A stretch of DNA of 64,000 nt, taken from positions 1,919 through 65,918 of the forward strand of contig JBBRBD010000001.1 in the NCBI GenBank assembly GCA_038206135.1. Direction: 5' to 3'. The translations under genes were made by a program, and so were the position numbers. Numbering within the stretch: the first letter of the stretch is position 1; each line of letters starts with the position of its first letter. Shown piece after piece: positions 30,271 to 64,000 of the stretch. The notes below the pieces were generated by a model. That model was not told the DNA's origin. It worked only from the letters and a program-made list of their open reading frames with translations, and did no database searches. Source of the DNA: Patescibacteria group bacterium (lineage in GTDB: Bacteria; Patescibacteriota; Microgenomatia; UBA8517).

Positions 30271-30292
30271 AGGAGTTGCCACGTATACTTAA

Positions 30293-36921: not shown

Positions 36922-36923
36922 CT

Positions 36924-46820: not shown

Positions 46821-47836
46821 CATTACTTCCCACAATCTCTGTTTGTATTGCAACTTATAATTCAGATTCAACTTTAGAGCGATGCTTACAAACTATTAGA
46901 TCACAAGACTATCCGCAATCTAAAATTGAAATAATCCTGGGTGATGGAGGATCCACTGACAAAACTGCAATAATAGCAAAAAGGTACCGATCTAAAGTAG
47001 TTTTAGTACCAAGAGATAAACAACATGCTGAATACAATAGAGGTGTAGCCTTTAATGCAGCGAAGAGTGAATTAGTGTTAATTCTTGATCACGACAACTT
47101 TTTACCTAATAAATCATGGTTACATTCAATGGTATTACCTCTTTTGGAAAACAAAGAAATTTTGGCAAGTAGCACCTGTTATTATGATTACAATAAAAAA
47201 TATGATCTAATGGATAGATATTTTGCTTTATTCGGAACAAGTGAACCGTTACCATTCTACCTACACAAGGCTGACAGATTGCCACAAACAGATAAGATCT
47301 GGACGCTATCAGGTAATTCGATAGATAAAGGGAACTACTTTGAGGTAAGTTTTTCCAAGAATCCTAGAGAATTTCCTTCCGTAGGATCAAATGGTTGTTT
47401 AATGCGTAGGGAAATTGTATTAAATTGTGCAAAAGCAGATCCAGACCATCATTACCCCATAGATGTATTGTTTGATTGCGTTAAAAAGGGACACAACAAG
47501 TTTGCATTTGTAAAAATATCGATCATTCATTTAACACATTCTCGCGGCTTAATTCAATTTATTAGACGTCGTGTCAAATTTGTAAATAAGTATCAATTTG
47601 ACGAACAAAGTAAACGAAGATGGAGTGTTGTAATGAAAGGTGATGAAAAAATGTTAGCAATATACATTTTATATAGTCTTACCGTTGTTAAACCTACCTG
47701 GGATGCGTTAAGAGGTTACATAAAAATTCATGACGCCGCTTGGTTTGTCCATCCAATTATGTGTTTAGTCACAACACTCCTTTATGGATATACAACTGTT
47801 TTACATATGATTAGTAGAAAAAGTATAACTATATGA
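46805..47836 (+). CDS. GT2 glycosyltransferase
   Basis: ISVCIATYNSDSTL, IILGDGGSTDKT, ILDHDN. Confidence 0.8.
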   Translation: MAHKVALLPTISVCIATYNSDSTLERCLQTIRSQDYPQSKIEIILGDGGSTDKTAIIAKRYRSKVVLVPRDKQHAEYNRGVAFNAAKSELVLILDHDNFLPNKSWLHSMVLPLLENKEILASSTCYYDYNKKYDLMDRYFALFGTSEPLPFYLHKADRLPQTDKIWTLSGNSIDKGNYFEVSFSKNPREFPSVGSNGCLMRREIVLNCAKADPDHHYPIDVLFDCVKKGHNKFAFVKISIIHLTHSRGLIQFIRRRVKFVNKYQFDEQSKRRWSVVMKGDEKMLAIYILYSLTVVKPTWDALRGYIKIHDAAWFVHPIMCLVTTLLYGYTTVLHMISRKSITI

Positions 47837-48963
47837 ATAGGCAAGTACTATTAGTTTCTATCGGTTTTTCTCCAAATGTGGGAGGAATAGAAACACATTT
47901 TGATGATTTAGTTGACGGATTGAAAATGCATAACTGGATTGTTACAGTTCTCACTTATCAACCCTTAACAAGCAATATAAAGGCTCCATATTTTGAGTAT
48001 TCAAAAAGTCTCTCTGTTTTTAGATTACCTATTCTAAAAGGTATTTTTTATAAATTTGTTAAATATCCAGTTTTGGAATTTCTTTTCTTGACTCCCGGTT
48101 TGTTTCTGTTTTTACCCTTTATATTACTGAATAATAGAAAAATAAAAGTAGTACATAGCCACGGCATTATTGCCGGTTTTGTTAGTCTTTTTTGGGGTAA
48201 AATCTTTAACATCAAAGTTATTACTACCACTCACTCAATTTACAATTTTCCGAAATCAGGTCTGTATCGTAATTTAGCTTCATTTATATTTAAAAACTCT
48301 GACTCAGTTTTGTGCTTATCCGATCAATCACTTAGAGAAGTCAAAGGATTAGGAGTACCTGCGTCAAAAATAAAACGTTTTACCTATTGGATAAATTTAA
48401 AAAAATTTTCACATGTACCGAATGCAAAATCAAAATTAAATTTAAAAAGATATTTTGTAGTTTTATTTGTCGGCCGTTTAATTCAGGAAAAAGGATTAAA
48501 AATTCTTTTGAATTCATTAAAATCATGGCCTAAGAACACTGAACTTCTTATAGCAGGAATTGGTCCACTTGAAAAATTGGTTCAAAGTTGTGAAATCAAT
48601 AGTAAGTATAATGTTAGATACTTGGGAAATGTTTCACAGAATAAACTCCCACTTTATTATTCTGCGGCTGATCTGCTTATTGTCCCTTCTATACATGAAG
48701 AAGGTTTTGGACGCGTTATAATAGAATCGTTAGCCTGTGGTACCCCTGTTGTTGGCGCAAATAGAGGTGCTATCCCTGAAGCTATGAATTCTAGCGTAGG
48801 AAAACTCATTACTATTTCCGAAGAGTCTATTTCTAAATCAATAAAACAGCTGTCAGTAGATATGGAATTGATGAGATCACTTAAAAATGCAAGTAGGCCA
48901 TATGCTGTGAAAAATTATTCGAATCAGAACCTAAACATAATTATCGATCAGTATAAATCATGA
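47833..48963 (+). CDS. GT4 glycosyltransferase (group 1)
   Basis: GGIETHF and C-terminal EGFGRVIIESLACGTPVVGANRGAIPE. ATGA overlap with the upstream gene. Confidence 0.8.
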   Translation: MNRQVLLVSIGFSPNVGGIETHFDDLVDGLKMHNWIVTVLTYQPLTSNIKAPYFEYSKSLSVFRLPILKGIFYKFVKYPVLEFLFLTPGLFLFLPFILLNNRKIKVVHSHGIIAGFVSLFWGKIFNIKVITTTHSIYNFPKSGLYRNLASFIFKNSDSVLCLSDQSLREVKGLGVPASKIKRFTYWINLKKFSHVPNAKSKLNLKRYFVVLFVGRLIQEKGLKILLNSLKSWPKNTELLIAGIGPLEKLVQSCEINSKYNVRYLGNVSQNKLPLYYSAADLLIVPSIHEEGFGRVIIESLACGTPVVGANRGAIPEAMNSSVGKLITISEESISKSIKQLSVDMELMRSLKNASRPYAVKNYSNQNLNIIIDQYKS

Positions 48964-49661
48964 GAATAAGACATAACAGTACTCCATCGGAAAATCTAAA
49001 TGGTTTTCACTACAAAGCGTTTAAACTTGTTTCAAAAAAAAGCATCGTCAATAAAAATATTCTGAACGTTGGGTGTGGTTTTGGATGGTTCGAGATGTTT
49101 GCACTTAAATTAAACCCAAATAAATTAGTAGGTATCGATATTGATAAAGATGCATTAAATATTGCTAAGCAAATTAAAAGTAAAAAGTTAACTTTCTTAG
49201 AAGGAAGTGCAATAAATATCGTGTTTAAGAAAAATACTTTCGATACTGTTGTTAGTTGGGAAGTACTTGAACACATAACACCGGGAAGCGAACAATTAAT
49301 GTTTGATGAAATCTTTAGAGTGCTAAAGCCAGATGGCTATTTGTATTTGTCTACACAACACAATAACGTGTTTTCAATGGTTACAGATCCCGCTTGGTGG
49401 CTTACTGGTCATAGACACTATTCTGTATCAAAAATACGTAGTTTATCCGTAAATAGCGGCTTCAATGTTCACAGTTTAGAAACACATGGTGGGTTTATAA
49501 CGCTTATATATATTCTTAATATGTATTTTTCTAAGTGGGTATTGAATAGAGAACCATTCTTTAATAGCTACTTTGTAAGAAAAACAACAACTGAGTACTT
49601 GAATAAGAGTGGTTTTCATAATATCTTTCTAATATGCAACAAGCCCAAAAAACAAAACTAA
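48960..49661 (+). CDS. class I SAM-dependent methyltransferase
   Basis: Motif I ILNVGCGFGWF, VGIDIDKDAL, SWEVLEHI, LKPDGYLYLST. ATGA overlap with the upstream gene. Confidence 0.8.
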   Translation: MRIRHNSTPSENLNGFHYKAFKLVSKKSIVNKNILNVGCGFGWFEMFALKLNPNKLVGIDIDKDALNIAKQIKSKKLTFLEGSAINIVFKKNTFDTVVSWEVLEHITPGSEQLMFDEIFRVLKPDGYLYLSTQHNNVFSMVTDPAWWLTGHRHYSVSKIRSLSVNSGFNVHSLETHGGFITLIYILNMYFSKWVLNREPFFNSYFVRKTTTEYLNKSGFHNIFLICNKPKKQN

Positions 49662-50473
49662 ATTTACTTCTTCAAAATACTGCTGATATAGCTCTTAGGC
49701 GACGAGCTCGAAAAATTATTGAAGAAATTAATCCCAAGCCTAATGATAAGATTCTTGAGATCGGTTGTGGTGATGGATATTATTTGAACATTTTGTTCTT
49801 ATTAGAAAATAAGGCTAAATATTCAGGAGTAGATATAGATAAAAACTCGTTATCTTCTGCAAAGCGAAATTTAAAAGGAAAAAATATAAATTTATACAAA
49901 GCAGATCTTATGAAAAAACTACCGTTTGTAAAAAACTCATTTGATAAAGTTATAATGAGCGAAGTTGCAGAACATTTATCAGATGACGCAAAAGGTATTA
50001 GAGAGGCAAGACGAGTATTGAAGCCAAATGGTTTAATTTGTATTTCAGTCCCGAGCGCAAATTACCCATTTTTGTGGGATCCTGTGAATTGGGTTATTGA
50101 ACATCTAACTGGACATCACATTAAAAGTGGTTTTTGGGCGGGTATATGGAATCAGCATTTAAGACTTTATAAACCTGAGCATATAAGAAACTTAGTAAAC
50201 GATTCTGGCTTTAAAGTTAAAAAAACTTTTGCAATAACCCAATGGTCGCTTCCTTTTAATCATAATATTATTAATTTAGGCGCTCGAATGCTTGCGAGAG
50301 GTGCAAGAGACTCGTCGCTTATTGCAGGAGCAAATAAGTTTTCAGTTGATTCAAAAAAGTCTGGTATTATGAAATTTTATTACGGTATTTCAAATTTCGT
50401 AGATAAATTGAATGATAGAGATCAATCAAAGGGTTCAGGAGTCTCGAACTTAGTTGTGGCTGAGAAGATATAA
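49634..50473 (+). CDS. class I SAM-dependent methyltransferase
   Basis: ILEIGCGDGYY, GVDIDKNSL, MSEVAEHL, LKPNGLICISVP. Confidence 0.8.
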   Translation: MQQAQKTKLNLLLQNTADIALRRRARKIIEEINPKPNDKILEIGCGDGYYLNILFLLENKAKYSGVDIDKNSLSSAKRNLKGKNINLYKADLMKKLPFVKNSFDKVIMSEVAEHLSDDAKGIREARRVLKPNGLICISVPSANYPFLWDPVNWVIEHLTGHHIKSGFWAGIWNQHLRLYKPEHIRNLVNDSGFKVKKTFAITQWSLPFNHNIINLGARMLARGARDSSLIAGANKFSVDSKKSGIMKFYYGISNFVDKLNDRDQSKGSGVSNLVVAEKI

Positions 50474-50498
50474 AAGTAGTATATAATTCAGCTATGTG

Positions 50499-50520
50499 TA
50501 TAGTGACATCTGTGTTTATA
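50499..50520 (+). promoter_or_regulatory. intergenic motif TATAGTGACATCTGTGTTTATA (copy 2 of the 11-mer GTGACATCTGT)
   Basis: Same 11-mer as at 14552-14562. Lies in the 109-nt gap between the methyltransferase gene and the wecB-like gene. A TATAAT-containing stretch (gtagtatataattc) lies just upstream. Confidence 0.3.
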
Positions 50521-50582
50521 TTTGACGTTTTTGAACTTCGAAAGTTTTTTTTCATTATTAATCGGGTAAATACTAATTATTA

Positions 50583-51683
50583 ATGAAAAAGTTTTATTTC
50601 TTCATAGGTACTACAGCTGAATTAATCAAAATTGCACCTGTCATGTCAGAGTTTGAAAAACGGAATATAGAATATAATGTTATTGCCTCAAATCAAAATA
50701 CGCTAAGATTTGAAGAAGTAGAGTCAATTGTGAAAAGAAAGTCTGCAGATTATACTCTTAGAATTCCTCATATAAACGAAAATCTAAATATTTATCTCAA
50801 ATTTATAGTATGGCTAATTAAGACAACAGCTAACTATTATTTATATTTTAGAAGGGAATTTAAAAATTTCAATAAAAAAAATGTCTATTTTATAGTCCAC
50901 GGAGATACTATCTCAGCATTACTTGGCTCAGTAGTATCTAAAATAAACGGTGTTAAAGTAGTTCATGTGGAGGCAGGTTTAAGATCCTTCAATTTTTTTG
51001 AACCCTTCCCTGAAGAATTGTGTAGATATATTATTTCCTCTATTTCCGACATTCATTTTTCTCCAAATTCGTGGGCTATAAAAAATTTGAAGAATAAAAA
51101 AGGAGTAAAGATTAATACATTCAGTAATACAAACTACGAAAGCGTTACAAATGCGTTAAAAGTATTAAATATAACTCCCAAAGATAAAATTACAAAAAGT
51201 AAGTACTTCATATTAGTAATACACAGACAGGAACATATCCTTTTCAACAAACAAATCACTCAAAATATAATCAATACATTTATTCATAATATTAACTCCA
51301 ATTTAAAATGTGTTTTTATTATGCATCCTCTGACTAAAAATTACCTCGTTAATGTAGGAATGTATGAAAAAATATTGCAAAACAAAAATATTGTAATTGT
51401 CGAGAGACTACCTTATATTAATTTTATTGATTTGCTTTCAAAATCTGAATTTATTGCAACAGATGGTGGTAGTAATCAGGAAGATGCATTTTATCTTGGT
51501 AAGCCTTGTTTAGTACTTAGGAAAAGAACTGAGAGAATAGAAGGATTAAAGCAGAATGTTGTTATTGGGGGAAATAATATCGCAAAAATTAACAAATTCA
51601 TAAATGAATATAAAAAATATAAAATTAAATTGCCAAAATATGAACTACTTGCGTCCACAATTATTGTTGACAATCTCACATGA
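50583..51683 (+). CDS. wecB: UDP-N-acetylglucosamine 2-epimerase (WecB/MnaA-like)
   Basis: GTTAELIKIAP (compare GTRPEAIKMAP), VHGDTISALLG, HVEAGLRS (the HVEAGLRT signature), HFSPNS, TDGGSNQEDAFYLGKPCLVLRKRTERIE (compare [28 protein letters not shown]). Confidence 0.8.
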   Translation: MKKFYFFIGTTAELIKIAPVMSEFEKRNIEYNVIASNQNTLRFEEVESIVKRKSADYTLRIPHINENLNIYLKFIVWLIKTTANYYLYFRREFKNFNKKNVYFIVHGDTISALLGSVVSKINGVKVVHVEAGLRSFNFFEPFPEELCRYIISSISDIHFSPNSWAIKNLKNKKGVKINTFSNTNYESVTNALKVLNITPKDKITKSKYFILVIHRQEHILFNKQITQNIINTFIHNINSNLKCVFIMHPLTKNYLVNVGMYEKILQNKNIVIVERLPYINFIDLLSKSEFIATDGGSNQEDAFYLGKPCLVLRKRTERIEGLKQNVVIGGNNIAKINKFINEYKKYKIKLPKYELLASTIIVDNLT

Positions 51684-52729
51684 ACAGAAAAAATATACTA
51701 TTGTCAGTTATAATTGCAACGTATAATTCTGAAAAAACACTTACCAAAGTATTAGATTCTGTTCAAAGTCAGACGCTTTCTAGCGAAAAATTTGAAATAC
51801 TAATCGTTGACGGTGGTTCATCTGATTCAACTCTTAATATTGCAAAAGATCATAAGTGTAAGATTTTTAAGAATACAGAGACTAATCCAGTCGCTGGGAA
51901 ACTATTGGGTTATCAGAAGGCTCAAGGAAAATATATTATGTATCTTGATCATGACGAATTAATTGACAAGAATACTAGTTTAGAAGTTAAATTAAGTGCA
52001 TTATCCTCTAACCCTAACGTGAAGGCCGTAGCTGGAGGTAACTACGTAAATCCTCCTAACTATCCATTTATAAATCAATATATCAACGAGTTCGGAGATC
52101 CTTTTTCTTTCTTCATGTATAGGATTTCTAAAAGAAACCGTATTTTTTATGAAAACATGAAAGAAAGATACGATTGTGACAAAGAAACGAATAAGTATGG
52201 AATTTTTTCTTTTATATATGTTATAAATTATCCGATTATAGAACTAGTCGCAGGTGGAAGTATGTTTGATGCTGAATTTTTAAAAAGGAAATATCCGAAC
52301 ACACTTAATACACAAAGCTTACTTCCACACCTGTTTTATCTCATTTGTAAGACCAATCCGTTTTTAGTTGTATTGAAGAACGACCCGTATATTCATTATT
52401 CTTCTGATTCATTTAAAAGGTATATTCGTAAAATATCTTGGAGAGTACGGAATAATATCTATCTTAAAGATTCATTGGGATCATCTGGTTACACGGGAAG
52501 AGAAGAATACTCTGGCAATTTTTGGAAATTCAAAAAATATTTATTTATACCATATTCACTTTTAATATTACCTGTTTTATCAGACGCGCTATATTTATCT
52601 TTTAAGCGTAAAGATTCAAGATATCTTTTACATATATTATTAAGTATTATTACTGCTGCAATGATTATTTACCATGCAATATTAAATATATCTGGCGCGA
52701 AGTTTAATTTAAAAGTATATGGTAGTTAG
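51680..52729 (+). CDS. GT2 glycosyltransferase
   Basis: LSVIIATYNSEKTL, ILIVDGGSSDST, YLDHDE. ATGA overlap with the upstream gene. Confidence 0.8.
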   Translation: MNRKNILLSVIIATYNSEKTLTKVLDSVQSQTLSSEKFEILIVDGGSSDSTLNIAKDHKCKIFKNTETNPVAGKLLGYQKAQGKYIMYLDHDELIDKNTSLEVKLSALSSNPNVKAVAGGNYVNPPNYPFINQYINEFGDPFSFFMYRISKRNRIFYENMKERYDCDKETNKYGIFSFIYVINYPIIELVAGGSMFDAEFLKRKYPNTLNTQSLLPHLFYLICKTNPFLVVLKNDPYIHYSSDSFKRYIRKISWRVRNNIYLKDSLGSSGYTGREEYSGNFWKFKKYLFIPYSLLILPVLSDALYLSFKRKDSRYLLHILLSIITAAMIIYHAILNISGAKFNLKVYGS

Positions 52730-52732
52730 ATT

Positions 52733-54739
52733 ATGTTTGTCACCAATTATATGAACAAAATAATTTTGTCATCATTTTTATATTATTCTAGGAAGATAAA
52801 AGGTCACTTCATAATTATATTTTTTATAATACTATCAGTTATTCTTGTACAGGCATGGTTTTCGCATCACAATTTAATCGCGACAGGTGAGGAAGGGTTA
52901 ATGTTTTATAATCCTCAAATTTTACTGTCTAAATTTGGTTCAAGTTGGATAGATACAGGTCTAGGAGCCCCAAACCCCGGTTTTATTCCAAGAATTCCTT
53001 TTTTTTGGTTACTTTCAGCTCTCAACAGTTTATTCCCGTCATGGATTAGTGAGTTAATTGTATTTGCAACTTTACTTTCAGTAGGTGGAATTGGCACCTA
53101 CTATTTGGGTAGTAAATATATATGGAGTAATAGGATGTCAAACTTTATTGCAGCCAACTTCTACATTTTAAATTTGTATACTCAAACACAAATTTTTAAC
53201 AGATTTCTTACACCATCAATGTTTGCTTGGAGCTTTTTACCATGGTTTATATACCTTTGGCTAAACTGGATAAAGATTGGAAAATTAAAGCAAATTATTT
53301 ACTTTGTTCTCTGCTGTTTACTTTTTTCAAATATGTATTCATCGCCGGCGAATGTAATCACTATGTGGCTGCCAGCAGCAATTCTTTCATTATCTTTATT
53401 CAAAAAATCTGAATGGAAGGTTTATTTATTTCGATTTACTTTAGGCATTTTTTTGTGGTTACTTGCGAATTTGTGGTGGCTATATCCGATTATAACAATA
53501 GGAAGTGATACATTTTCTGAGGTTTTTACACTAAAATATAATATAGACTCGCTCTCAAGTGTATCGAGTCAGTTCGATTGGTGGCATTACCTTGTTTTCT
53601 ATCATTGGTTGTATATGTCGCCAACTGGACCTTGGGGAATATTATATACATTGCCTCATCGCATATTTATTTCCTTCATTCCGCTGTTTTTTCTACCCGT
53701 AGGCTTAATTAAAACACCAAGGAGTAATATTAAATATTTCTTAATAATTTTATTACTTCTGTCATGGTTTATTATAAAAGGAACAAATCCACCTCTAGGA
53801 ACTCGCTTTTACACTTTATTATTTTCTGCATCTAGTTTGTTTGAGGTATTTAGAAATCCATTTGAAAAATTTGGAATAGTCTGGTTACTGATATATTCAT
53901 TTTTCTTTGGGGCAGGGTTATCATGGTTTATTGCTAAAAATTCAAACACTCTAAAAAAGATTATTGGATATACTTCAATGTTTATAGTTTTTTATATAGT
54001 AGTGAAACCTATGTGGAATGGACAAATATATCAAGTTAATACGAAAGTTACAGTGCCTAGTTATTACACAAATTTAAACGAATTTTTAAAAAACACAAAA
54101 AATGATAGTAGGGTGGTGCTTTTGCCATTAATTGGAGGAGATTCAGTTAAATATAATTGGGGTTATCAGGGCATAGATGCATCTGATGTACTTATACAAA
54201 AAGAATCGCTCTCAAGAGTATTACCACAAACACTGGCAGACGTAGAACGATCAAAGTTCAAAGTTAGTTTTAATAGTGGTAAAGATTTTAGGAAAGAGCT
54301 GGAGGACATGAATATTGAATATCTTCTTGTTCAAAATGATTTAGATTATGTAACTAGTGATGCAAGTTCATCTGCATCAGTTTCAAAACGATTAATATCA
54401 TCAGCATTACAGAAAGTTACCTCTATTGGACCAATCGATATATATAAATACGAACAAACTAATCCTGGGCTCTTTGTAATTGAAAATGGCGAAAAATCTG
54501 TAGTTAGCTACACTAAATTGTCGAATACACACTATCGTGTTTATGTAAAAAACGCTAACAGTGAAGCTATCCTAGTATTTCGAGAAACTTATCACAAAAA
54601 TTGGCATGCTACATTGAATGATAAATTAATATCAGATCACTATATTTGGGAAGGTTATGGAAACAGCTGGAAATTACATAATAGCGGAGATTATGCAGTT
54701 GAAGTAACATTTCCTACAATGCCATGGAATCATTTGTAA
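52733..54739 (+). CDS. large polytopic membrane protein, DUF3367/AftD-like (arabinofuranosyltransferase-like GT-C candidate)
   Basis: 668 aa. N-terminal LIATGEEGLMFYNPQ...SSWIDTGLGAPNPGFIPRIPFFW, more than 12 TM, and a large C-terminal soluble domain. Paralog of the partial gene at 63236. Confidence 0.5.
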   Translation: MFVTNYMNKIILSSFLYYSRKIKGHFIIIFFIILSVILVQAWFSHHNLIATGEEGLMFYNPQILLSKFGSSWIDTGLGAPNPGFIPRIPFFWLLSALNSLFPSWISELIVFATLLSVGGIGTYYLGSKYIWSNRMSNFIAANFYILNLYTQTQIFNRFLTPSMFAWSFLPWFIYLWLNWIKIGKLKQIIYFVLCCLLFSNMYSSPANVITMWLPAAILSLSLFKKSEWKVYLFRFTLGIFLWLLANLWWLYPIITIGSDTFSEVFTLKYNIDSLSSVSSQFDWWHYLVFYHWLYMSPTGPWGILYTLPHRIFISFIPLFFLPVGLIKTPRSNIKYFLIILLLLSWFIIKGTNPPLGTRFYTLLFSASSLFEVFRNPFEKFGIVWLLIYSFFFGAGLSWFIAKNSNTLKKIIGYTSMFIVFYIVVKPMWNGQIYQVNTKVTVPSYYTNLNEFLKNTKNDSRVVLLPLIGGDSVKYNWGYQGIDASDVLIQKESLSRVLPQTLADVERSKFKVSFNSGKDFRKELEDMNIEYLLVQNDLDYVTSDASSSASVSKRLISSALQKVTSIGPIDIYKYEQTNPGLFVIENGEKSVVSYTKLSNTHYRVYVKNANSEAILVFRETYHKNWHATLNDKLISDHYIWEGYGNSWKLHNSGDYAVEVTFPTMPWNHL

Positions 54740-56244
54740 AGTCTAGAAAGTTCGATTTTCTTGTCGTAGTTATACTAATCGGAATTACCTTTTACTTTCT
54801 TCGAGGATTTCTAAAATTTGGAATTTGCTGCGACGATTATTTTTTGTTATATGCAGTAAAAAACAAACTTACATATAACCCATGGATGATAACTGATTAC
54901 ATAGTTGGCCCATACTCTGGTCAATACATCCTTATAGGTGTATTGAATAAAGTAGTACATTACAATTCCTATTATTACTTCTTCACTTCTATCTTGTTGA
55001 GAGCTTGTGTGTCAATTTCCCTGTACTTACTAACTAAGTATATTACGACAAATAAAGTTCTAGCGTTTATTGCTGGAGTATTATTTTCTATTCAATATGC
55101 AGGTATACAAACAACTGAAGCAGTGGTTAATTCAAGTAACTATGTATCTTTATTTTTTTGGATAATATCCTTTCAATTTTTGTTAAGATATTATTTTGAT
55201 TCAAAAAGATACTACTTAAACTTTTTTTATTTTTTATTATTTGCATCAATTTCATTAATAGTAGCTACTTCTAGAGCAAACGGCATTATTTTTGTATTTT
55301 TTATTTTAGAATTTATTTTTTTGATTTTTAAAAAAACAACATATAAATTATCAGCGTTAAGATTATTCTTCTTTTTTACTCTACTTTATTTAATAAAGAT
55401 AATCGGTTTTTTTAAACCAGTTGGAAGTGCAAATGTAAATCCCTTGTTAAGTATGGAGAAATCAATAAATTCATTGTTTGCCGCAAAACTATGGTTATCA
55501 TATTTTGTAAAAAACATTGTAGAGATTATAGTTCCTCCACGATATTCAAGTGCTGTAAATATATGGGTGTTTTGTGTCCTTATATCTCTAATATTATTTT
55601 ATACTTATGTACGCTCCAATGAGAAATATCGAATTGTCCTATTAGTTTCAATTAGTTGGTTCTTCGCCTTTATGCTGGCACCATATACTTATTATCCAAA
55701 TTCTTATAATGAAGTAACTTCTCGATATCTGCTTTTCCCTTCAATTGGCATTTTAATTATTATATCTTTATTTTTAGAGACACTTTTTAAAGAAAAATTG
55801 TTGTTTTATAAGATATCAGCAGTAAGTATTTGTGCATTGCTATTAATTATAAACACAGTAAGTATTAACAATTTTATATCCGATGTAAGTGTATATCGTA
55901 ATAATGAGAAAATCGAAGCTATCTTTAAAGTTATGAATGCTGAAGTCTCAAAAAGCATTGGTACGAAAAGACCACTTATATATATACAATCTGATGATTC
56001 CACATTTGTTTATTTTGCTGTGCTTTATGGCGGTCAGGAGCGATTTTCTTTGAGAAATCAATATTTTGATACTGCATACTTTCCATTCATTATTACTGAT
56101 AGACTTTCAATACCTGATGAGATTATTAAAAATAATATATCTGTCAATGATTTTTATTCATTTAATATAGTGTCTGGGAATGCAATATCTAGTACTGTAG
56201 AGGAAAGGAAAAAATATTTTTATGAAACTACTAGATTACATTAA
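54724..56244 (+). CDS. polytopic membrane protein, unclassified (GT-C-like candidate, DD loop motif)
   Basis: About 12 TM. First loop GICCDDYFLLYAVKN. Paralogous to the 56222 product. Confidence 0.5.
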   Translation: MESFVKSRKFDFLVVVILIGITFYFLRGFLKFGICCDDYFLLYAVKNKLTYNPWMITDYIVGPYSGQYILIGVLNKVVHYNSYYYFFTSILLRACVSISLYLLTKYITTNKVLAFIAGVLFSIQYAGIQTTEAVVNSSNYVSLFFWIISFQFLLRYYFDSKRYYLNFFYFLLFASISLIVATSRANGIIFVFFILEFIFLIFKKTTYKLSALRLFFFFTLLYLIKIIGFFKPVGSANVNPLLSMEKSINSLFAAKLWLSYFVKNIVEIIVPPRYSSAVNIWVFCVLISLILFYTYVRSNEKYRIVLLVSISWFFAFMLAPYTYYPNSYNEVTSRYLLFPSIGILIIISLFLETLFKEKLLFYKISAVSICALLLIINTVSINNFISDVSVYRNNEKIEAIFKVMNAEVSKSIGTKRPLIYIQSDDSTFVYFAVLYGGQERFSLRNQYFDTAYFPFIITDRLSIPDEIIKNNISVNDFYSFNIVSGNAISSTVEERKKYFYETTRLH

Positions 56245-58090
56245 TAGGAAAAAACGTTTGGCATTTACATGTTTTTGTTTGATTGTCGTTTTGTCGTTTT
56301 TAAGTTGTTACAAATCCTTTAGATACGGCTTTTGGAGAGATGACTGGGTACTTATATGGCAAGCGTTGTATGATAGGGCTAATTTTCTAAAGTGGATATT
56401 GGGAATTAGACATCCCGGTGAAATATTCAACACATATGCCTTGGCCCCAATCTTTGGTCAACAGGTACTACTTTGGCAATATTTCGGTTTTATATTGAAA
56501 GTACTTGTTAGTTTAGTAAGCAGCTTTGTCCTTTATTCTTTAATAGGTTCAAAAAAAGGTGCATTCATTTCATCATTACTAATTGCTTCAAGCTTTATCG
56601 GATTGGAAGGGTATAACTGGATTAGCGCAAGATTAAACGTATATGTCCTTCTAGTTTGTCTCATTGCAACTTTGTTTTATATTGAGAGTAAAAAAATGTC
56701 TTCAATTAAATATTATATCTATAGTTTGATTTTTCTAATATTTGGTATGTTCATGGAGCCGGGAAGGGTTATATTTCTACCATTCGTTCTAATATCTTGG
56801 GAAATAACTGTTGGACGGATAGAAAATAGCATATTTAAATTTATAAATTTGATTAGAATGGTTTTTATTATTATAGCTACACTTGCTGGAGCCTTAACTA
56901 CAAGCTATGGAAGAACATTACTTTATGGTGGTACGTCTGGCTATATTCAAAATCTTCAGAAGGATAATAGTGCTTTCTTGCGTTTTTTCTACTCGCTTTC
57001 AAATTTAATTCTTATATATATAAAAGGGATACGTGAATCTGCGGGATTGTCAACTGGGTTTAATCGTTTTGATGCATATATCGGTCTATTATTAGTTGTA
57101 TTATTGATATTAAGCGGTTTATTCATGTTTGTTAAAAAAGAAAAGAATTTACCGGTTTTTGTGGTATCTAGCCTGTGGTTACTTTTATTCTTTGCACCTG
57201 GATGGATATCAGACATGTCAGTTTCTTTAAGTGAAAGCTCTCGATTCTTTACAATTAGTTCAGTTGGATTTACATGGATTTTAACTCTGATTGTATTAAA
57301 ATTTTCACCAAAAATTTGTATTGTAGTTACAATACTACTTATATTTACGAATCTTTTGTTTTCAAACAAAATACAATCTTCAAATTACAACATCAGAAGC
57401 TTTGAAATTGCGAATAATTTTTACAGAACGCAACAAAAGTATGTGTCTGGTTTAGGTACACCTCTGATTTTTATAGTCACTGGTGATAACATTCTAAAAG
57501 GTTATATTTTTGATTGGGGAACTGACGGTTCTGTACAATTTTCCTATGCTAGAAGTATTAAGCAAATTGAGAAAATTCCTATATATGGTATAGATTATAA
57601 ATTGGCTGCCAAATTGATTTGCGAGAAGAATGTAAATAGACCATTTATAAATGAATGGGGGTTACAAACTGATAAAGTTACGATAGATGAAGTGTATGGT
57701 TGGAATTTAAACAAAGATGGCAACTTAGATCAAACTATAGATAAAACAAGAATCAAGGTTGCACATGAAGGCGATTGTTTATTTCGAAATATTGACAAGA
57801 CTTTTAATAATCGACAATTGATAATCAAATCATACTTTCTTCTTAAGCATCCATATAATGACGTAGTCAATTCGGTTAGTAGTTTTAAGGTAATAAATAT
57901 TGTCAAGAATGCATTCGAAGTAAATGTTTTACTCTACGAAAAAGGAAAATTAATCACAAAATATATGCAAAAAGTAGATCAGATATCAAGTGTCGGTGAA
58001 TATTATATTTACATTCGGCACCCTGTAATTAATATTCCAGATAAAGCAGTTTTTATTTACGAAAATCAGAGTAAAGTAATAAGTATATGA
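56222..58090 (+). CDS. polytopic membrane protein, unclassified (paralog of the 54724 product, with C-terminal soluble domain)
   Basis: First loop FWRDDWVLIWQALYD, about 11 TM, then a ~220-aa soluble C-terminal domain. Confidence 0.5.
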   Translation: MKLLDYINRKKRLAFTCFCLIVVLSFLSCYKSFRYGFWRDDWVLIWQALYDRANFLKWILGIRHPGEIFNTYALAPIFGQQVLLWQYFGFILKVLVSLVSSFVLYSLIGSKKGAFISSLLIASSFIGLEGYNWISARLNVYVLLVCLIATLFYIESKKMSSIKYYIYSLIFLIFGMFMEPGRVIFLPFVLISWEITVGRIENSIFKFINLIRMVFIIIATLAGALTTSYGRTLLYGGTSGYIQNLQKDNSAFLRFFYSLSNLILIYIKGIRESAGLSTGFNRFDAYIGLLLVVLLILSGLFMFVKKEKNLPVFVVSSLWLLLFFAPGWISDMSVSLSESSRFFTISSVGFTWILTLIVLKFSPKICIVVTILLIFTNLLFSNKIQSSNYNIRSFEIANNFYRTQQKYVSGLGTPLIFIVTGDNILKGYIFDWGTDGSVQFSYARSIKQIEKIPIYGIDYKLAAKLICEKNVNRPFINEWGLQTDKVTIDEVYGWNLNKDGNLDQTIDKTRIKVAHEGDCLFRNIDKTFNNRQLIIKSYFLLKHPYNDVVNSVSSFKVINIVKNAFEVNVLLYEKGKLITKYMQKVDQISSVGEYYIYIRHPVINIPDKAVFIYENQSKVISI

Positions 58091-59286
58091 AAGAACACAA
58101 ACTAACAATTCATATCTTTTCATTGGCAGTAGAAGGTGTAGGTATTTCAGGAGGAGATAAAATTTTTATTGAATTTGCAAGAAACTGGAAAAATACTGAA
58201 AACGTGATTATACATACGTGGGATGCAGGTGTTCAAATGATGGATAAACAGGGATTATCTGAAGGTAAATCATTAAATATAATAAATTATAATGCCACTC
58301 GCATTTCGAAATTCGGAAAAATACCTTTTTACATTTTTCGAATAATACTTGGCGCGTTTAAAGCATGTTTATTGCGTACCGAAAACAGCAAATATACCGT
58401 TTTTTATAGCTCATCTGAATTTCTGATCGATGTTGTGCCCACCTTAATTTTAAAATTTCGATACCCTAAATCTATTTGGGTTGCATCTTGGTATCAAACA
58501 GCCCCAAACCCATTGGTAGGATTCGGCGATTCTTCTAGAGATCAAAAACATAGATTCAAAGCGTTATTATATTGGCTATCTCAAATACCAACTCGACCTC
58601 TGATTTCTTTATTTTCTAATTTTGTTTTGGTTAACAATAACGATGAAATGAATGAATTTCCTAAGCACAACAAACTAAAAAAAGTTGGTGTTGTATTAGG
58701 TGCAGTAGATATAAGTAAAATTGAAATTTGGAAAAACAAACTAACCTCACAAGCAAAATATAAAGCGGTTTTCCAAGGTCGGTTCCATCCTCAAAAAGGT
58801 GTATCAGAACTAATTGATATTTGGAAGCTAGTAGTTAATCAAATCCCTTCTGCAAAATTAGTAATGATAGGAGATGGTCCTGAGATGCAAACAGTTATTA
58901 AAAAAATAGAAAAATATCATCTAGAGAAAAATATCGAATTAAAAGGATACTTATTCGATGGTGAGGAAAAATATCAGATTTTTGTAAATTCAGAAATAGT
59001 TGTACATCCCTCATATTTTGATTCAGGTGGAATGGCTTCTGCTGAAGCGGCGGCGTTTGGATTGCCAATAGTTGGTTTTAATCTACCTGCTTATAAATAC
59101 TATTATCCCAAGGGTATGTTGAAGGTTCCTATTGGGAATAAAACAGCTTTTGCTAAAGCTGTGATATATTTACTAGTAAACTCAAAAGAAAGAAGAAAAA
59201 TCGGGAAAGAAGCAATGTTAAGTATTCACAAAAATTTTGATTGGAAGGTAAGAGCAAAGGAAACATTGAATTTAATAAAAAGATAA
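58087..59286 (+). CDS. GT4-like glycosyltransferase (GT-B fold)
   Basis: C-terminal GRFHPQKGV...VMIGDGPE...VHPSYFDSGGMASAEAAAFGLPIVGFN is typical of GT4. ATGA overlap with the upstream gene. Confidence 0.65.
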   Translation: MKEHKLTIHIFSLAVEGVGISGGDKIFIEFARNWKNTENVIIHTWDAGVQMMDKQGLSEGKSLNIINYNATRISKFGKIPFYIFRIILGAFKACLLRTENSKYTVFYSSSEFLIDVVPTLILKFRYPKSIWVASWYQTAPNPLVGFGDSSRDQKHRFKALLYWLSQIPTRPLISLFSNFVLVNNNDEMNEFPKHNKLKKVGVVLGAVDISKIEIWKNKLTSQAKYKAVFQGRFHPQKGVSELIDIWKLVVNQIPSAKLVMIGDGPEMQTVIKKIEKYHLEKNIELKGYLFDGEEKYQIFVNSEIVVHPSYFDSGGMASAEAAAFGLPIVGFNLPAYKYYYPKGMLKVPIGNKTAFAKAVIYLLVNSKERRKIGKEAMLSIHKNFDWKVRAKETLNLIKR

Positions 59287-60035
59287 TGAATAACAAACAA
59301 ATAATTGTAGAAAAAAAATTAGGTATTCCAGCAGATTATCAATATAAAGCAATTCGTAGTAAAAACTTTTTACAAAGAAATTGGCATAAAAATAAATTGA
59401 TAGTTGTAAATGAATTGCTAAACTTCAGTAAAGAAAGTTCTGTGCTTGATTTAGGGCCAGGTTCAGGGAATTTTGAACTTCAGTACTGTAAAAAGGTCTC
59501 TAATATAGTTGCCATTGATTATAACAACGAAGCGATCAATTTCTTGTATAAGAAAATAAAACAACGAAAAATCAAAAATATAACACTAAAAGTACTAGAT
59601 GTTCGAAATTTATCTCGATATAAAACTACACAAAAGTTTGATTTTATTGTAATGATAGATGTTATTGAGCATATTAAGATAAATGAAGCAGAGCAAGTTG
59701 TGAAAGAAATGAATAGGCTTCTAAAAAAAGGAGGAAGAGCCTGCATTATAACTCCAAACTACAAAAGTTTTTGGGTGTATATTGAAAGAATTCTAGATCT
59801 ACTTACCATTGTTCCAAAATTTGATAATCAGCAACACCTGGCTAAGTTTCACAAACAAAATCTAATTCAAATGTTTGAGAAAAGAGGTTTTAAAACAAAC
59901 TATATAGGATCCTTTAATTTATTTGCTTTCTTTTTCCCAAAATCAAATTTGAGTCAAACAATTACTAAATTTGAATTAAATTCAATTGGAACAATCGGTA
60001 ATCTACTAGTCGGTGTATTTGAGAAGAAAAAGTAA
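59286..60035 (+). CDS. class I SAM-dependent methyltransferase
   Basis: VLDLGPGSGNF, AIDYNNEAI, MIDVIEHI, LKKGGRACIITPN. ATG 59286 overlaps the upstream TAA. Confidence 0.75.
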   Translation: MNNKQIIVEKKLGIPADYQYKAIRSKNFLQRNWHKNKLIVVNELLNFSKESSVLDLGPGSGNFELQYCKKVSNIVAIDYNNEAINFLYKKIKQRKIKNITLKVLDVRNLSRYKTTQKFDFIVMIDVIEHIKINEAEQVVKEMNRLLKKGGRACIITPNYKSFWVYIERILDLLTIVPKFDNQQHLAKFHKQNLIQMFEKRGFKTNYIGSFNLFAFFFPKSNLSQTITKFELNSIGTIGNLLVGVFEKKK

Positions 60036-60053
60036 GTAAATCATGTTTTTTAT

Positions 60054-60926
60054 ATGAAATCAAAACTAATAAAAGTGGTTGCAGTAGTTCCTACGTTTCA
60101 GAGTTATGTAACTTTGATAGCATGTGTAAATTCACTCCTCGAACAAAACTTCAAATTGAGTGAGATCGTTATCGTAGATAATAATACTAAATCTAAAAAA
60201 CTTAAATTTAAATCAAATATTGTGAAAGTTGTAACACCAGGAAAAAATTTAGGTGTTTCAGGCGGTAGAAATAAAGGACTAGATTCAATTTCTGGAAAGT
60301 ACGAATATGTCCTCTTTTTTGACCACGATATGGTGGCAGACGTGAATATGGTTAAGTGTCTTCTAGAAACGGCCAAACGTATTACAAAAGCGGGAATTAT
60401 AACACCAAAGATTTATTATTGGGAGCAGAAAAAAATCATTTGGGCAGCAGGAACTGAAATAGACACATTAAGTGGACAAGTTTTGTTTCGAGGCGGAAAT
60501 GATACTGGCCAATATGACGAGGAACAGGAGGTTCAAGTTGCACCCGCAGCTATATTTGTAAAAAAGATCGTAATTAACAAAATAAAATGTTTTGATGAGC
60601 GTTATTTTGCTACATATGAAGATACTGATTTCTGTTTTAGAGCAAAAAGCGTTGGTTATTCGACCATGTACGCACCTGATGCAATTGCCTATCATAAAAT
60701 TCCATATGATGAAAAAAAATCAAATTTAAAGCTACTTTCGAGAAGTTATTATGTTGCAAAAAATAGAATTATTTTTATGAAGAAATATGGACAAAATTTT
60801 CTACTTTTCTGCTTATTTTTCATTCCTGTCTATGCCTGTTATTATCTAATATTGTCCCTTAAATATAATAGACTTAGTGAATACAAGAATTATCTAAAAG
60901 GAACTATAGCGGGATTAACTAATTAA
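60054..60926 (+). CDS. GT2 glycosyltransferase
   Basis: VAVVPTFQSY, IVIVDNNTKS, FFDHDM, YEDTDFCFR. Confidence 0.8.
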   Translation: MKSKLIKVVAVVPTFQSYVTLIACVNSLLEQNFKLSEIVIVDNNTKSKKLKFKSNIVKVVTPGKNLGVSGGRNKGLDSISGKYEYVLFFDHDMVADVNMVKCLLETAKRITKAGIITPKIYYWEQKKIIWAAGTEIDTLSGQVLFRGGNDTGQYDEEQEVQVAPAAIFVKKIVINKIKCFDERYFATYEDTDFCFRAKSVGYSTMYAPDAIAYHKIPYDEKKSNLKLLSRSYYVAKNRIIFMKKYGQNFLLFCLFFIPVYACYYLILSLKYNRLSEYKNYLKGTIAGLTN

Positions 60927-60927
60927 G

Positions 60928-61569
60928 ATGTTATTTCCTTTTTCTTATCATTGGATCCTTTTGAAATCAATCTCAAATGCAGATAGTATATTGGATATTG
61001 GATGTGGTGAAGGATCATTAATGAAAGATTTAATTCAATACAGACCTTTATGGAAGGTAACGGGGATAGAGCTATATGAGGATTCTTTAAAAAACGCTCG
61101 TGAGAAAAACATATATACAAAAGTATTAAAAGGAAATGTTGTACATATTGAAAATAGATTTAAGAGTAAATCTGTAGACGTTGTGTTTAGTTCACAAGTA
61201 GTAGAACATCTAAAGAAGGATGAAGCGATTAAAGCTTTAAAAGAGTGGGAACATTTTGCAAAAAAAAGAATAGTCATCACGACAATAGTGGGTTTCTTTG
61301 AATATAATCCAATAGAAAAAGAAAAAGATAAGAACCCTCTTCAAGCTCACAAAAGTGCCTGGTCAATAGAAGAGTTTAAGCAAATGGGATACAAGGTTCA
61401 TGGTCAAGGATTGAAATATATATATGGAGAAAAAGGCATTGCACACAAATACCCATTTTTTCTGCATTGGTTTACTTATATTGCGTTCTGTTTTGCACCT
61501 ATCTGTTATTTTTTTCCTTCACTATCAACATATATGATTGCAGTTAAAGAGATTAAAAATGAATATTGA
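60928..61569 (+). CDS. class I SAM-dependent methyltransferase
   Basis: ILDIGCGEGSL, GIELYEDSL, SSQVVEHL. Confidence 0.75.
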   Translation: MLFPFSYHWILLKSISNADSILDIGCGEGSLMKDLIQYRPLWKVTGIELYEDSLKNAREKNIYTKVLKGNVVHIENRFKSKSVDVVFSSQVVEHLKKDEAIKALKEWEHFAKKRIVITTIVGFFEYNPIEKEKDKNPLQAHKSAWSIEEFKQMGYKVHGQGLKYIYGEKGIAHKYPFFLHWFTYIAFCFAPICYFFPSLSTYMIAVKEIKNEY

Positions 61570-62215
61570 AACTATTCTCAAATATGTGCCATTTTCGATT
61601 ATTTGGGTACATCGTAAGGCAATCGGCGAACCAAACACACTGCTCGATCTTGGAAGCGGTGATGGTACATTCACAAAGTCAATAAAGCTTGATTCTGATT
61701 GGATTATAACAGCAGCTGACATATACCCCAAGATTGTTAAAGATGCACTGAGAAATGACTTATACAAAAAAGTAATAAATGGAGATGTAAATACTATTGT
61801 CAACGATTTAATTAAGAAAAAGCAGAAGTATAATGTTGTTTTACTGTCTCAAGTTATTGAACATTTGAATAAAAATGAAGGCAAAAAATTATTAAAAGCT
61901 GTTGAAAAAATTGCAACCAACCGTATTGTAGTTGGTACACCGCGTGGATATCTGTCACAGGAAGATGTGTTTGTAGATGAAAATCCATTTCAAAAACACA
62001 AATCTGGTTGGACAACTGAGGAGTTTCAAGAAATGGGATATGTGGTAAGAGGTGTTGGTTTAAATATAGTATGGAAAGAAAAAGGGCCAGGGAGATCAGG
62101 TAATATGTTAAAAGTTTTAATCTTTAGACTATTTTCGTTGCTTTGTTCACCGATGGTATATTATCACCCAGAATATGCCTCTGGCCTTGTTTGTTATAAA
62201 GAAATGCATGATTGA
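61559..62215 (+). CDS. class I SAM-dependent methyltransferase (paralog of the 60928 product)
   Basis: LLDLGSGDGTF, LSQVIEHL, and QKHKSGWTTEEFQEMGY parallel to QAHKSAWSIEEFKQMGY in the upstream paralog. Confidence 0.75.
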   Translation: MNIETILKYVPFSIIWVHRKAIGEPNTLLDLGSGDGTFTKSIKLDSDWIITAADIYPKIVKDALRNDLYKKVINGDVNTIVNDLIKKKQKYNVVLLSQVIEHLNKNEGKKLLKAVEKIATNRIVVGTPRGYLSQEDVFVDENPFQKHKSGWTTEEFQEMGYVVRGVGLNIVWKEKGPGRSGNMLKVLIFRLFSLLCSPMVYYHPEYASGLVCYKEMHD

Positions 62216-63233
62216 ACATCCATTTGCGTCTATTGTAATTGCAAACTATAACGGGGAAAAACACCTAGAACGATGTTTGAAAAGCGTTTTAAAACAGAAT
62301 TATAAAAATTTCGATTTAATAATTGTAGACGATGGTTCCACAGATAATAGTCAAAAAATTATTAGGAAATATTTACAGAGTGATAAAAGAATTAAACTTA
62401 TTAGTAACAAGTCTAACCTTGGCGCTGCAGCATCGAGAAACAATGCAATAAAGATCTCAAATTCAGAAATACTCGTTTTCCTTGATAACGATACTGCGGT
62501 CGAAAAAAATTGGCTTAAAGAATTAATAATAGTTTTAACATCAAATTCAAACATTGGTGCAACTCAATCTTTGATTCTAGATATGGAAAAAGGTGATTTG
62601 ATTCAAATGGCAGGAGGGAAGTTAATTGCTCAAACGGCCTGGCTTATTCCTAGATTACAGTGGAAGAGTTATCGACGTTTCAAAAATTCTCTAAAGAATA
62701 CGCAGATAATCGCAATTTCAGCTTCACTTGCTGTAAAGTCTAGCGTTTTTAAACATATAGGTTTTTTTGATGAAAAGGAAGCTGTAACGACCGAAGATAT
62801 TGATTTAAGTTGGCGAGTATGGATTGCAGGTTACAAAATATTGCTAGCTCCTAAATCCATTGTTTATCACGAGACAAAATCAGTTGAAGCCAGAAAATAT
62901 ATGAATGTTAATTATCAAAAGGTTTATTTTCACTTAGCAAAGAACTCTTTTCGTTCAATTTTGAAAAATTATGAGGCGATAAATTCGTTTAGATATTTGT
63001 TTATGAGTATATTCATAAACATCACTCGAGCATGTATTGTTATCCCGAAAGTAGGTTTTTCTGCAATGAATGGTACTATTGCAGCTATTTTGTGGAATAT
63101 TTTTAATATAAGAGACACTCTTTTAGAGAGAAAAAAGGTTCAGCTCATAAGGCATACCACTGATCATGAATTATTGACAGCAGTTTTTGATGGCAGAAGT
63201 ATATGGCAGATTTATTTGCAATATTTTCGTTAA
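62208..63233 (+). CDS. GT2 glycosyltransferase
   Basis: ASIVIANYNGEKHL, LIIVDDGSTDNS, FLDNDT, TEDIDLSWR. ATG 62208 placed just upstream of the previous gene's stop. Confidence 0.8.
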   Translation: MIEHPFASIVIANYNGEKHLERCLKSVLKQNYKNFDLIIVDDGSTDNSQKIIRKYLQSDKRIKLISNKSNLGAAASRNNAIKISNSEILVFLDNDTAVEKNWLKELIIVLTSNSNIGATQSLILDMEKGDLIQMAGGKLIAQTAWLIPRLQWKSYRRFKNSLKNTQIIAISASLAVKSSVFKHIGFFDEKEAVTTEDIDLSWRVWIAGYKILLAPKSIVYHETKSVEARKYMNVNYQKVYFHLAKNSFRSILKNYEAINSFRYLFMSIFINITRACIVIPKVGFSAMNGTIAAILWNIFNIRDTLLERKKVQLIRHTTDHELLTAVFDGRSIWQIYLQYFR

Positions 63234-63235
63234 AA

Positions 63236-64000
63236 ATGAAAAAATTAATATTTTTTACTTCAATTCTACTTGTCGTTATATGGTTTAGATCAGGAAATCT
63301 AATGGGGACAGGAGAGTCAGGATTACCGTTTTATAATATTAGTCTCGAGGCAAATATAACTCGACACTCGTGGACAGATGTCTTTCTGGGTTTTCCTACA
63401 ACTGCTAGTGTTGGCACCTATCCTTTATATAAGGTCTTCACCGTAATAGAGCAAACGTTTAGCTTGAAAGGTTACCAAACAGAAGCATTATTTATATTTA
63501 TTGTTTTGATTATTTCCGGATTTTCTATCGATTTATTAGTTTGTTATATTTTTCCAAATACAAAGTTAATAAATAGATACACAGGTGTATTGTTTTATTG
63601 GTTTAATCCGTTTGCGGCCGTAAATATATGGAATCGATTTCTTTATAATTACATGCTTTTTTATGCAATCTTGCCGCTTCTTTTGTATGTCTATTACAAA
63701 GGAATTAATGAACGCAGAATAGAGTACGCATTTGGAATAGGAATATTAGTATTTATATTTTCCTATGCAATTATAAATGTGCCGTTTATTTTACTGATGT
63801 TGGGCTTGTTCTTATTAACCACTATTTACTTTTCGAACAAAAGAACAATCCTTTTTAATATTAAATTTTATGCAATTGCTGTTACCTCGATTATTGCAAT
63901 AAATTTCTGGTGGATTGCTCAACTTTTTATTTATACGCATTCGAGTGATTTTAAGGTTTCTGTAAGTTCTTTTTTTACAATCGAGGGAAATGTATCTAAT
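63236..64000 (+). CDS. 3'-truncated large membrane protein, DUF3367/AftD-like (paralog of 52733..54739)
   Basis: ATG 63236 overlaps the upstream TAA. LMGTGESGLPFYN and NIWNRFLYNYMLFYAILPLL align with LIATGEEGLMFYN and QIFNRFLTPSMFAWSFLPWF of the 52733 protein. Open to the window end. Confidence 0.5.
   Translation, partial: MKKLIFFTSILLVVIWFRSGNLMGTGESGLPFYNISLEANITRHSWTDVFLGFPTTASVGTYPLYKVFTVIEQTFSLKGYQTEALFIFIVLIISGFSIDLLVCYIFPNTKLINRYTGVLFYWFNPFAAVNIWNRFLYNYMLFYAILPLLLYVYYKGINERRIEYAFGIGILVFIFSYAIINVPFILLMLGLFLLTTIYFSNKRTILFNIKFYAIAVTSIIAINFWWIAQLFIYTHSSDFKVSVSSFFTIEGNVSN

Follow-up and report, generated by a model that had tools for sequence, protein, structure and literature searches.

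Sequence comparison and structure prediction over a 64,000-nucleotide (nt) stretch of DNA (hereafter the window), most likely from a Patescibacteria genome of the Microgenomates type, revealed a group of predicted membrane glycosyltransferases at 52733-64000, which is the distal part of a ~70 kb glycan-biosynthesis supercluster on one strand. The genes are designated A (52733-54739), C (54724-56244), D (56222-58090), and B (63236-64000, cut at the window end), all on the plus strand, together with gene E that lies beyond the window end. By sequence relationship, A, B, and E appear to be paralogs that separated long ago within the AftD branch of the glycosyltransferase C (GT-C) enzymes, and C and D are predicted to form a separate GT-C family. 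The reading in which both groups carry out extracytoplasmic transfer from polyprenyl-phosphate-sugar donors to a surface glycan is given a probability of about 0.72. The documented AftD-like clade and its operon architecture are new, while the kind of system is known.

AftD-like proteins A, B, and E

A sequence-only reading of the window had proposed that two giant paralogous membrane proteins of the AftD (DUF3367) type, A and B, bracket a sub-cluster with a second paralog pair, C and D. The peptides it quoted were recovered at their positions, and the AftD assignment was borne out by a search with the Pfam model PF11847 (GT-C_AftD, formerly DUF3367), on which A (668 aa) scored 68.2 bits (E 4.8e-19) against a gathering threshold of 26. 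A profile of the A family built from 41 sequences matched Mycobacterium abscessus AftD (6W98, 6WBX) at an E-value of 3.1e-19, with profile positions 24-562 on chain residues 31-570 and hence over the whole GT-C super-domain, and a second, weak match joined the C-terminal NGYANxW motif of the family to AftD residues 1204-1259. The AlphaFold model of A (pLDDT 92.5, pTM 0.91) comprised a helical membrane domain (residues ~1-430), an alpha/beta periplasmic domain (444-534), and one beta-sandwich (560-659) past the GT-C soluble domain, with no C-terminal transmembrane (TM) helix. Foldseek placed three AftD entries at ranks 1-3 for this model (E 1.1e-11, TMq 0.60), followed by STT3, DPY19, and PglB (TMq 0.38-0.46, E 1e-6 to 1e-4) and by the Emb proteins (0.30), with transporters only at a probability <0.2. 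When A, C, and D were each searched as single sequences against the PDB, no useful match was returned.

Gene B was completed from a public contig (L001) that was 100% identical to the window over 8756 nt and reached 5.3 kb past the window end. The full-length protein is 1089 aa (L001:7992-11261, equivalent to window positions 63236-66505), carries E27 in a GTGESG motif (63314-63316) and a FRNPYEKFG motif, and has an extra region of ~500 aa followed by a single C-terminal TM helix (hydrophobic stretch 1055-1083). The proposed paralogy of A and B was confirmed by BLASTP of A against the window-cut B (63236-64000; 28% identity over 156 aa, E 3e-13) and by hhalign of full-length B against a profile of A relatives from which B was left out (probability 100%, E 3.7e-62, residues 5-535). 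The locus holds three AftD-like copies rather than the two first described, as a divergent paralog, E (>754 aa; L001:11762-14023, equivalent to window positions 67006-69267), was identified ~500 nt after B. Gene E matched the A-relatives profile with a probability of 98.5% (E 3.6e-15) and carries the same KGxNPPFG...FRDxxKF signature; its orthologs of ~870-965 aa retain the Asp after TM1 in an R-[VA]-A-x-D-[FY]-P motif as well as the R..K motif. The term giant was overstated for A, which has 668 aa compared to ~1400 aa in AftD. In other genome bins, the orthologs of these three genes shared ~35% identity with the window copies compared to 24-28% between A and B, and because orthologs are closer than paralogs within a genome, the triplication must be older than the divergence of these genomes.

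All five proteins share an N-terminal polytopic block of ~390-430 aa preceded by basic residues ahead of TM1 and followed by a soluble domain. The cryo-EM study of AftD reported K39, D41, E251, K361, and D474 as essential in vivo. Combined HMMER and family alignments placed AftD K361 on A K379 (at least 90% conserved) and AftD R357 on the invariant A R374, while AftD D474/E475 fell on A I481/D482, with D or E at position 482 conserved in a GYxGxD motif. An acidic residue in external loop 1 was present in nearly all family members, being E53 in A, E27 in B, and Asp in the E orthologs. The candidate active-site residues of A are E53 (52889-52891), R374/K379 (53852-53869), and D482 (54176-54178).

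The C and D proteins

Pairwise comparison of C (506 aa) and D (622 aa) was weak (21% identity over 171 aa, E 6e-4). When C was aligned instead with a profile built from 62 D-family sequences, it matched with a probability of 99.8% (hhalign, E 2.7e-29, 467 columns) and its CCDDY segment fell on FWRDDW of D; this profile match and the placing of CCDD on the DD motif show that the paralogy of these polytopic proteins, also proposed from the sequence alone, is real. In both proteins a hydrophobic block (residues 1-385 or 1-388) precedes the soluble domain. The alignment of the 62 sequences displayed FWxDDW, HPG, and HRYL (R341, Y342) motifs and a Cys pair (C467/C519) in the C-terminal domain, and residues D40-D41 of D (56339-56344), located after the first membrane helix, were at least 90% conserved. 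The DD motif of C is D37-D38 (54832-54837). In the deposited NCBI gene model C has 452 aa and begins at M55 (54886), dropping TM1 and the DD motif, such that the deposited annotation is probably N-terminally truncated and the open reading frame (ORF) from 54724 includes both elements. An exhaustive HMMER search identified 174 representative D-family homologs at E<=1e-3 and 125 at E<=1e-10, typically of 500-530 aa, while word-indexed searches with C and D recovered the query itself only. The closest homolog of D (P0042) was found on contigs <3.1 kb, with no gene context.

Neither C nor D had a Pfam, NCBIfam, or PDB sequence match. The PMT_2 model detected one of the 62 D-family members (1.3e-5) and no other GT-C Pfam model detected any, and the best GT-C match of the D-family profile against the PDB was STT3 at a non-significant E-value of 2.8. 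For the AlphaFold model of D (pLDDT 85.7, pTM 0.86) the top 20 PDB matches in Foldseek were all GT-C enzymes (probability 0.87-1.0, with 0.98-1.0 for the top 16; TMq 0.27-0.43), including PglB, AglB, STT3, ALG9, ALG12, DPY19, Pmt4, EmbB, and ArnT, and non-GT-C matches stayed at a probability <0.25. The D-family profile also matched the PMT_2-type paralogs of the window (98%, E 6e-14) over a 133-column core in the TM3-TM6 region and the AftD-like profile (97%, E 7e-11). Two Wzx-type flippases from the window, used as controls, scored <1% against these profiles, and as these proteins are likewise polytopic the matches are therefore not an artefact of hydrophobic composition. Taken together, the profile and model comparisons suggest that C and D make up a separate GT-C family, one that is unnamed in curated resources. 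The sequence-only reading had offered novel membrane-protein families as its fallback, and this was upheld for C and D as regards a family of their own and failed as regards a fold outside GT-C, given the GT-C model of D. It had also named permease or membrane protease folds as the outcome that would overturn it, and the only high-probability matches of both predicted structures (A and D) were GT-C enzymes.

Gene order, distribution, and neighboring genes

A scan of species-representative genomes, seeded with a motif from a 13-sequence subset of the A family, identified at least 51 loci with AftD-like genes, almost all in Patescibacteria bins. The informative bin names were Woesebacteria, Daviesbacteria, Levyibacteriota, Microgenomates, and Patescibacteria, along with a single Bathyarchaeia bin and a single "Deltaproteobacteria" bin. 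Roughly half of the loci were labeled "uncultured Gammaproteobacteria" in third-party assemblies, yet contained the same cassette with neighbors 50-65% identical, and we infer that these labels are placeholders or misassignments. The PSI-BLAST survey and phylogeny in the AftD paper placed homologs in Actinobacteria only, and the literature collection searched contained no paper joining AftD, arabinosyltransferase, or GT-C with Patescibacteria or the candidate phyla radiation (CPR). The earlier remark that such a branch is unusual outside Actinobacteria consequently holds for the published AftD phylogeny and not for PF11847, which already captures these proteins, nor for the genomes, with at least 51 loci.

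Several contigs contained two or three AftD-like paralogs, and the recurrent order was (GT4-SDR-GT2-GT4-MT-epimerase-GT2)-A-GT4-GT2-MT-(MT)-GT2-B-E, where GT2 and GT4 are glycosyltransferase families, SDR is a short-chain dehydrogenase/reductase, and MT is a methyltransferase. Since this order recurs across Patescibacteria bins, the arrangement A ... GT4-GT2-MT-GT2-B-E appears to be a lineage-wide operon design in Patescibacteria of the Microgenomates type. The B-E tandem was kept in L027, L035, L037, L044, L045, L046, and L050, while D-family genes were a variable addition, with 12 of the 51 loci having one within 10 kb. Upstream of A-type genes the GT4-SDR-GT2-GT4 block (genes 44941, 46044, 46805, and 47833; window 44941-48963) was strongly conserved, and the GT2 at 46805 was the best-conserved gene of the cassette at up to 65% identity.

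The genes around A-E are encoded on the plus strand. A WecB-like UDP-GlcNAc 2-epimerase-like gene (50583-51683, 366 aa; Pfam Epimerase_2), which is the first gene past a 110-nt gap that is the sole sizeable intergenic gap upstream of A, matched NCBIfam TIGR00236 wecB with 179 bits (E 1.3e-52), under the equivalog cut-off of 210, and a similar epimerase was found again beside A-type genes in related loci. It is followed by a GT2 gene (51680-52729, 349 aa) with a hydrophobic C-terminal tail and generic GT2 matches only that stops 3 nt ahead of A; the start of C in turn overlaps the end of A by 16 nt. In many related loci A-type genes are directly preceded by a GT2 resembling this one or the GT2 at 62175. 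The GT4, three methyltransferases, and two GT2 genes reported between D and B were confirmed by Pfam. The GT4 (58087-59286, 399 aa; Glycos_transf_1, E 9e-27) was the most constant downstream neighbor of A-type genes, with 47-54% identity in related loci. Downstream of it are an S-adenosylmethionine (SAM)-dependent methyltransferase (59241-60035; Methyltransf_23/31/25) of 264 aa in the ORF model and 249 aa from a start at 59286 in an alternative Logan gene call, and a GT2 (60054-60926, 290 aa; Glycos_transf_2, E 3e-16) with a C-terminal hydrophobic segment that is kept in the cassette of related loci. Two further SAM-dependent methyltransferases, at 60928-61569 (213 aa; Methyltransf_11/25) and 61538-62215 (218-225 aa; Methyltransf_12/23), are adjacent and both have a hydrophobic C-terminal tail. 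The former is kept in the cassette upstream of B-type genes, and one or both lie just upstream of the GT2-B pair in related loci, as might be expected if sugar methylation is tethered to the membrane and coupled to the B step. The last GT2 (62175-63233, 352 aa; Glycos_transf_2, E 8.5e-35) stops 2 nt ahead of B, and its orthologs (50-56% identity) are directly upstream of B-type genes in L027, L035, L041, and L044. Both GT2 genes abutting A and B were considered as lipid-phosphate-sugar synthases and rejected, as their best PDB matches were generic GT2 with GtrB and DPMS near the bottom.

The window as a whole is a single plus-strand gene array containing three Wzx-type flippases, an ABC transporter, many GT2 and GT4 genes, five methyltransferases, an SDR, and the WecB-like epimerase. 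It further encodes ~10 PMT_2/PMT-type GT-C paralogs of 490-600 aa in two tandem arrays at 6626-14531 (gene starts 6626, 9179, 10750, and 12966) and 27227-38579 (27227, 30293, 31906, 33594, 35224, and 36924). ORF 14976-16850 is also GT-C-like (hhalign, 97% against the window's PMT_2 paralogs), and once A-E are counted, the ~69 kb hold at least 16 GT-C genes, which is an unusually dense expansion. The small GT2 proteins encoded at 5940, 12248, and 44114 have full-length resemblance to ArnC, dolichyl-phosphate hexose transferase, and PpgS. ORF 75-1004 encodes a GT2 catalytic domain fused to a GtrA/DPMS-type transmembrane domain and is a candidate lipid-phosphate-sugar synthase, although its GT2 part was matched at profile positions 62-162 only, the C-terminal portion, and its annotated start is perhaps wrong. 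Six sizeable ORFs matched nothing in Pfam or NCBIfam at the thresholds applied, namely 1068-2609, 3865-4737, 4734-5888 (minus strand), 20193-21956, 29011-30270, and 40499-41635. Among these, ORF 1068-2609 was considered as a D-family relative and rejected as unrelated (<1% against the profile), ORF 20193-21956 was ambiguous against the PMT_2 paralogs (46% probability), and the ORFs at 29011 (419 aa) and 40499 (378 aa) are, by position alone, possible Wzy- or ligase-type candidates. Along the window the GC content drops from ~38% to ~30%, with 34-39% in the first 38 kb compared to 29-32% in 48000-64000, and the latter part may be a more variable or more recently acquired portion of the glycan cluster. 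Scans of the window for tRNA genes and Rfam families returned nothing, and promoter and terminator scans showed no excess over shuffled controls.

Proposed mechanism, alternatives, and related systems

The mechanism of A-E is inferred from family membership and residue conservation. Each protein would be an integral-membrane enzyme with its active site on the outer face of the cytoplasmic membrane, where a polyprenyl-phosphate-linked sugar already flipped across the membrane would act as donor and single sugars would be passed to a growing surface glycan or glycoconjugate. Transfer would make use of the conserved external loop-1 acid, which is E53 for A, E27 for B, an Asp for E, and the DD motif for C and D, while in the AftD-like proteins R374/K379 (FRNPxEKF) may be the counterpart of AftD K361 and D482 that of D474/E475, with the acceptor glycan probably held by the beta-sandwich of A and the extension of B. 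Cytoplasmic GT2, GT4, methyltransferase, and epimerase proteins would build and modify the lipid-linked precursor, and the upstream Wzx-type flippases would export it. A hexose-type donor from the small ArnC/DPM-like GT2s of the cluster is more likely than arabinofuranose: the candidates encoded in cis point to lipid-phosphate hexoses derived from nucleoside diphosphate (NDP)-sugars and not to pentofuranoses derived from phosphoribosyl pyrophosphate (PRPP), so arabinofuranose is assigned a low probability.

Several observations weigh against this reading of A-E. On PF11847, B scored 17.9 bits, below the threshold of 26, and E had no match, such that both are tied to the AftD-like family via the A subfamily profile instead. 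Identity between A and AftD is only ~12%, no conserved Lys in the A family alignment matches the essential K39, and the column of the essential E251 is variable (D272 in A, S in B; D, S, E, Y, T, N, and G in the family). The register of the loop-1 acid compared to AftD D41 is shifted by one to three residues: E53 is located seven residues before the shared N-P compared to four for the AftD acid, and HMMER places D41 on G55. For D, the Foldseek E-values are marginal (~1e-3, TM score ~0.4). Regarding the donor side, the small ArnC-like GT2s (5940, 12248, and 44114) are far below NCBIfam equivalog cut-offs, the GT2s directly upstream of A and B are generic and not clearly lipid-phosphate-sugar synthases, and an initiating phosphoglycosyltransferase was not found in the window. 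Finally, the organism assignment comes via the labels of homologous bins, many of which are the implausible "uncultured Gammaproteobacteria."

The sequence-only reading had suggested furanosyl or pentosyl transfer, and in its strong form A, B, and E would be true AftD equivalents that draw on a polyprenyl-phospho-pentofuranose donor to build up an arabinan-like polymer, with arabinofuranose or a different pentofuranose as the sugar added, outside Actinobacteria. AftD is the closest solved structure and the sole characterized PF11847 member, pentofuranose systems of three components that include a GT-C enzyme occur widely beyond Actinobacteria (PMC11127046), and the SDR at 46044-46820 is conserved in the cassette, SDRs serving as epimerases in such pathways. 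However, within the GT-C fold the donor is not fixed by family membership, and A lacks both the three arabinan-binding carbohydrate-binding modules (CBMs) and the acyl carrier protein (ACP)-binding C-terminal helix bundle in addition to having the low identity given above. Neither a UbiA-type (PF01040) polyprenyl-phosphoribose synthase, a DprE1-type oxidase, nor a MATE flippase was present in the Pfam scans of the window or the precomputed Pfam marks of L001, and the SDR matched generic oxidoreductase models only, on which it was rejected as a DprE2-like epimerase. With K39 and E251 lacking conserved equivalents as well, the suggestion found no support here and is considered distinctly unlikely.

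A further alternative, judged unlikely, is that the AftD-like proteins resemble oligosaccharyltransferases or ligases that transfer a flipped lipid-diphosphate oligosaccharide en bloc to protein (S-layer, pilin) or to a wall polymer. The next structural matches of A after AftD are consistent with this (STT3, PglB, and DPY19), as are a weak contact of the A family profile with the soluble domain of an archaeal oligosaccharyltransferase (3vgp, E 0.08) and a conserved W-x-Y-x-G-x-D motif (NWGYQGID) in the periplasmic domain, whose position appears comparable to WWDYG. The several Wzx-type flippases and many Leloir glycosyltransferases would also fit, and no ligase or polymerase was recognized in the Pfam scans of the window cluster. 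Conversely, neither of the oligosaccharyltransferase motifs, WWDYG and DK/MI, occurs as such, AftD as a monosaccharide transferase is the clearly better match, and three paralogs in fixed order suggest successive linkage-specific steps. That A-E are not enzymes at all, being structural or transport membrane proteins (permease, protease, or scaffold) or inactive GT-C relics, is highly improbable. While C and D are without annotated relatives, the high-confidence models match GT-C only, with transporters at a probability <0.25; the genes sit within a conserved order of glycosyltransferase genes; and conservation of the loop-1 acidic and R/K motifs in distant homologs would argue for retained catalysis.

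Interpreted as sugar transferases of the AftD branch and a second GT-C family, A-E are of interest since AftD is an essential and structurally unusual mycobacterial cell-wall enzyme whose published phylogeny ends at Actinobacteria. A compact AftD-like clade of ~650-1100 aa with three conserved paralog lineages in ultra-small uncultured bacteria provides a pared-down version of the AftD core and a way into the surface chemistry of Patescibacteria cells, which is almost unknown and is believed to underlie their attachment to host cells. The C/D proteins add one GT-C family without a name in curated resources, and known principles of glycan assembly are unchanged. A far more speculative picture, to which low odds are given, is that Patescibacteria put together a methylated surface polysaccharide of complex structure, mostly on the outer side of the membrane, by a mycobacterium-like GT-C relay (three AftD-type paralogs in fixed order, the previously undescribed C/D family, and ~10 PMT_2-type proteins), perhaps with pentofuranose donors made elsewhere in the genome at one or more steps, and that a ~650-aa AftD-type protein was ancestral to the 1400-aa actinobacterial enzyme.

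Among known systems, the mycobacterial alpha-(1->3)-arabinofuranosyltransferase AftD (PDB 6W98, 6WBX, and 6WBY) is the best structural match of A, with profile homology across the ~600-residue GT-C super-domain, a common Arg and Lys pair and periplasmic acid, an acidic residue within external loop 1 that is out of register with D41, and a C-terminal beta-sandwich with the shared NGYANxW/NGWQQGW motif; B also shares the C-terminal membrane re-entry. It differs in its size of ~1400 aa compared to 668 aa in A, in the three CBMs and the ACP-binding TM12-16 bundle that A lacks, and in its actinobacterial host, whereas the Patescibacteria loci have no decaprenylphosphoryl-arabinose (DPA) pathway gene nearby and carry three paralogs per locus in fixed order. 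The GT-C class A enzymes STT3, PglB, AglB, and DPY19 are second-tier structural matches of A and D (TM score 0.38-0.46) in which a periplasmic alpha/beta domain likewise comes after the membrane core and external loop 1 bears an acidic motif, but they are distinguished by WWDYG, DK, and MI motifs that are missing here and gave no match in the single-sequence PDB searches. The PMT_2/ArnT-type proteins (PF13231) resemble the D family in profile match, architecture, cluster, and presumed polyprenyl-phosphate-sugar donor, while their loop-1 x-D-E-x motif differs from FWxDDW and the D family has a C-terminal domain with a Cys pair. For the pentofuranosyl GT-C family CAZy GT136 (C. youngae ORF12; conserved D31, E34, H106, R349, and Y350), the DD, HPG, and R341-Y342 residues of the D family form a superficial parallel only. 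The three-component extracytoplasmic systems (GtrA/B/X, ArnC/ArnT, and the GT136 pentofuranose system; PMC11127046) share the logic of pairing a lipid-phosphate-sugar synthase and a flippase with a GT-C enzyme that acts on a glycan beyond the membrane, compared to which the present cluster contains many GT-C genes of three families in one operon-like array.

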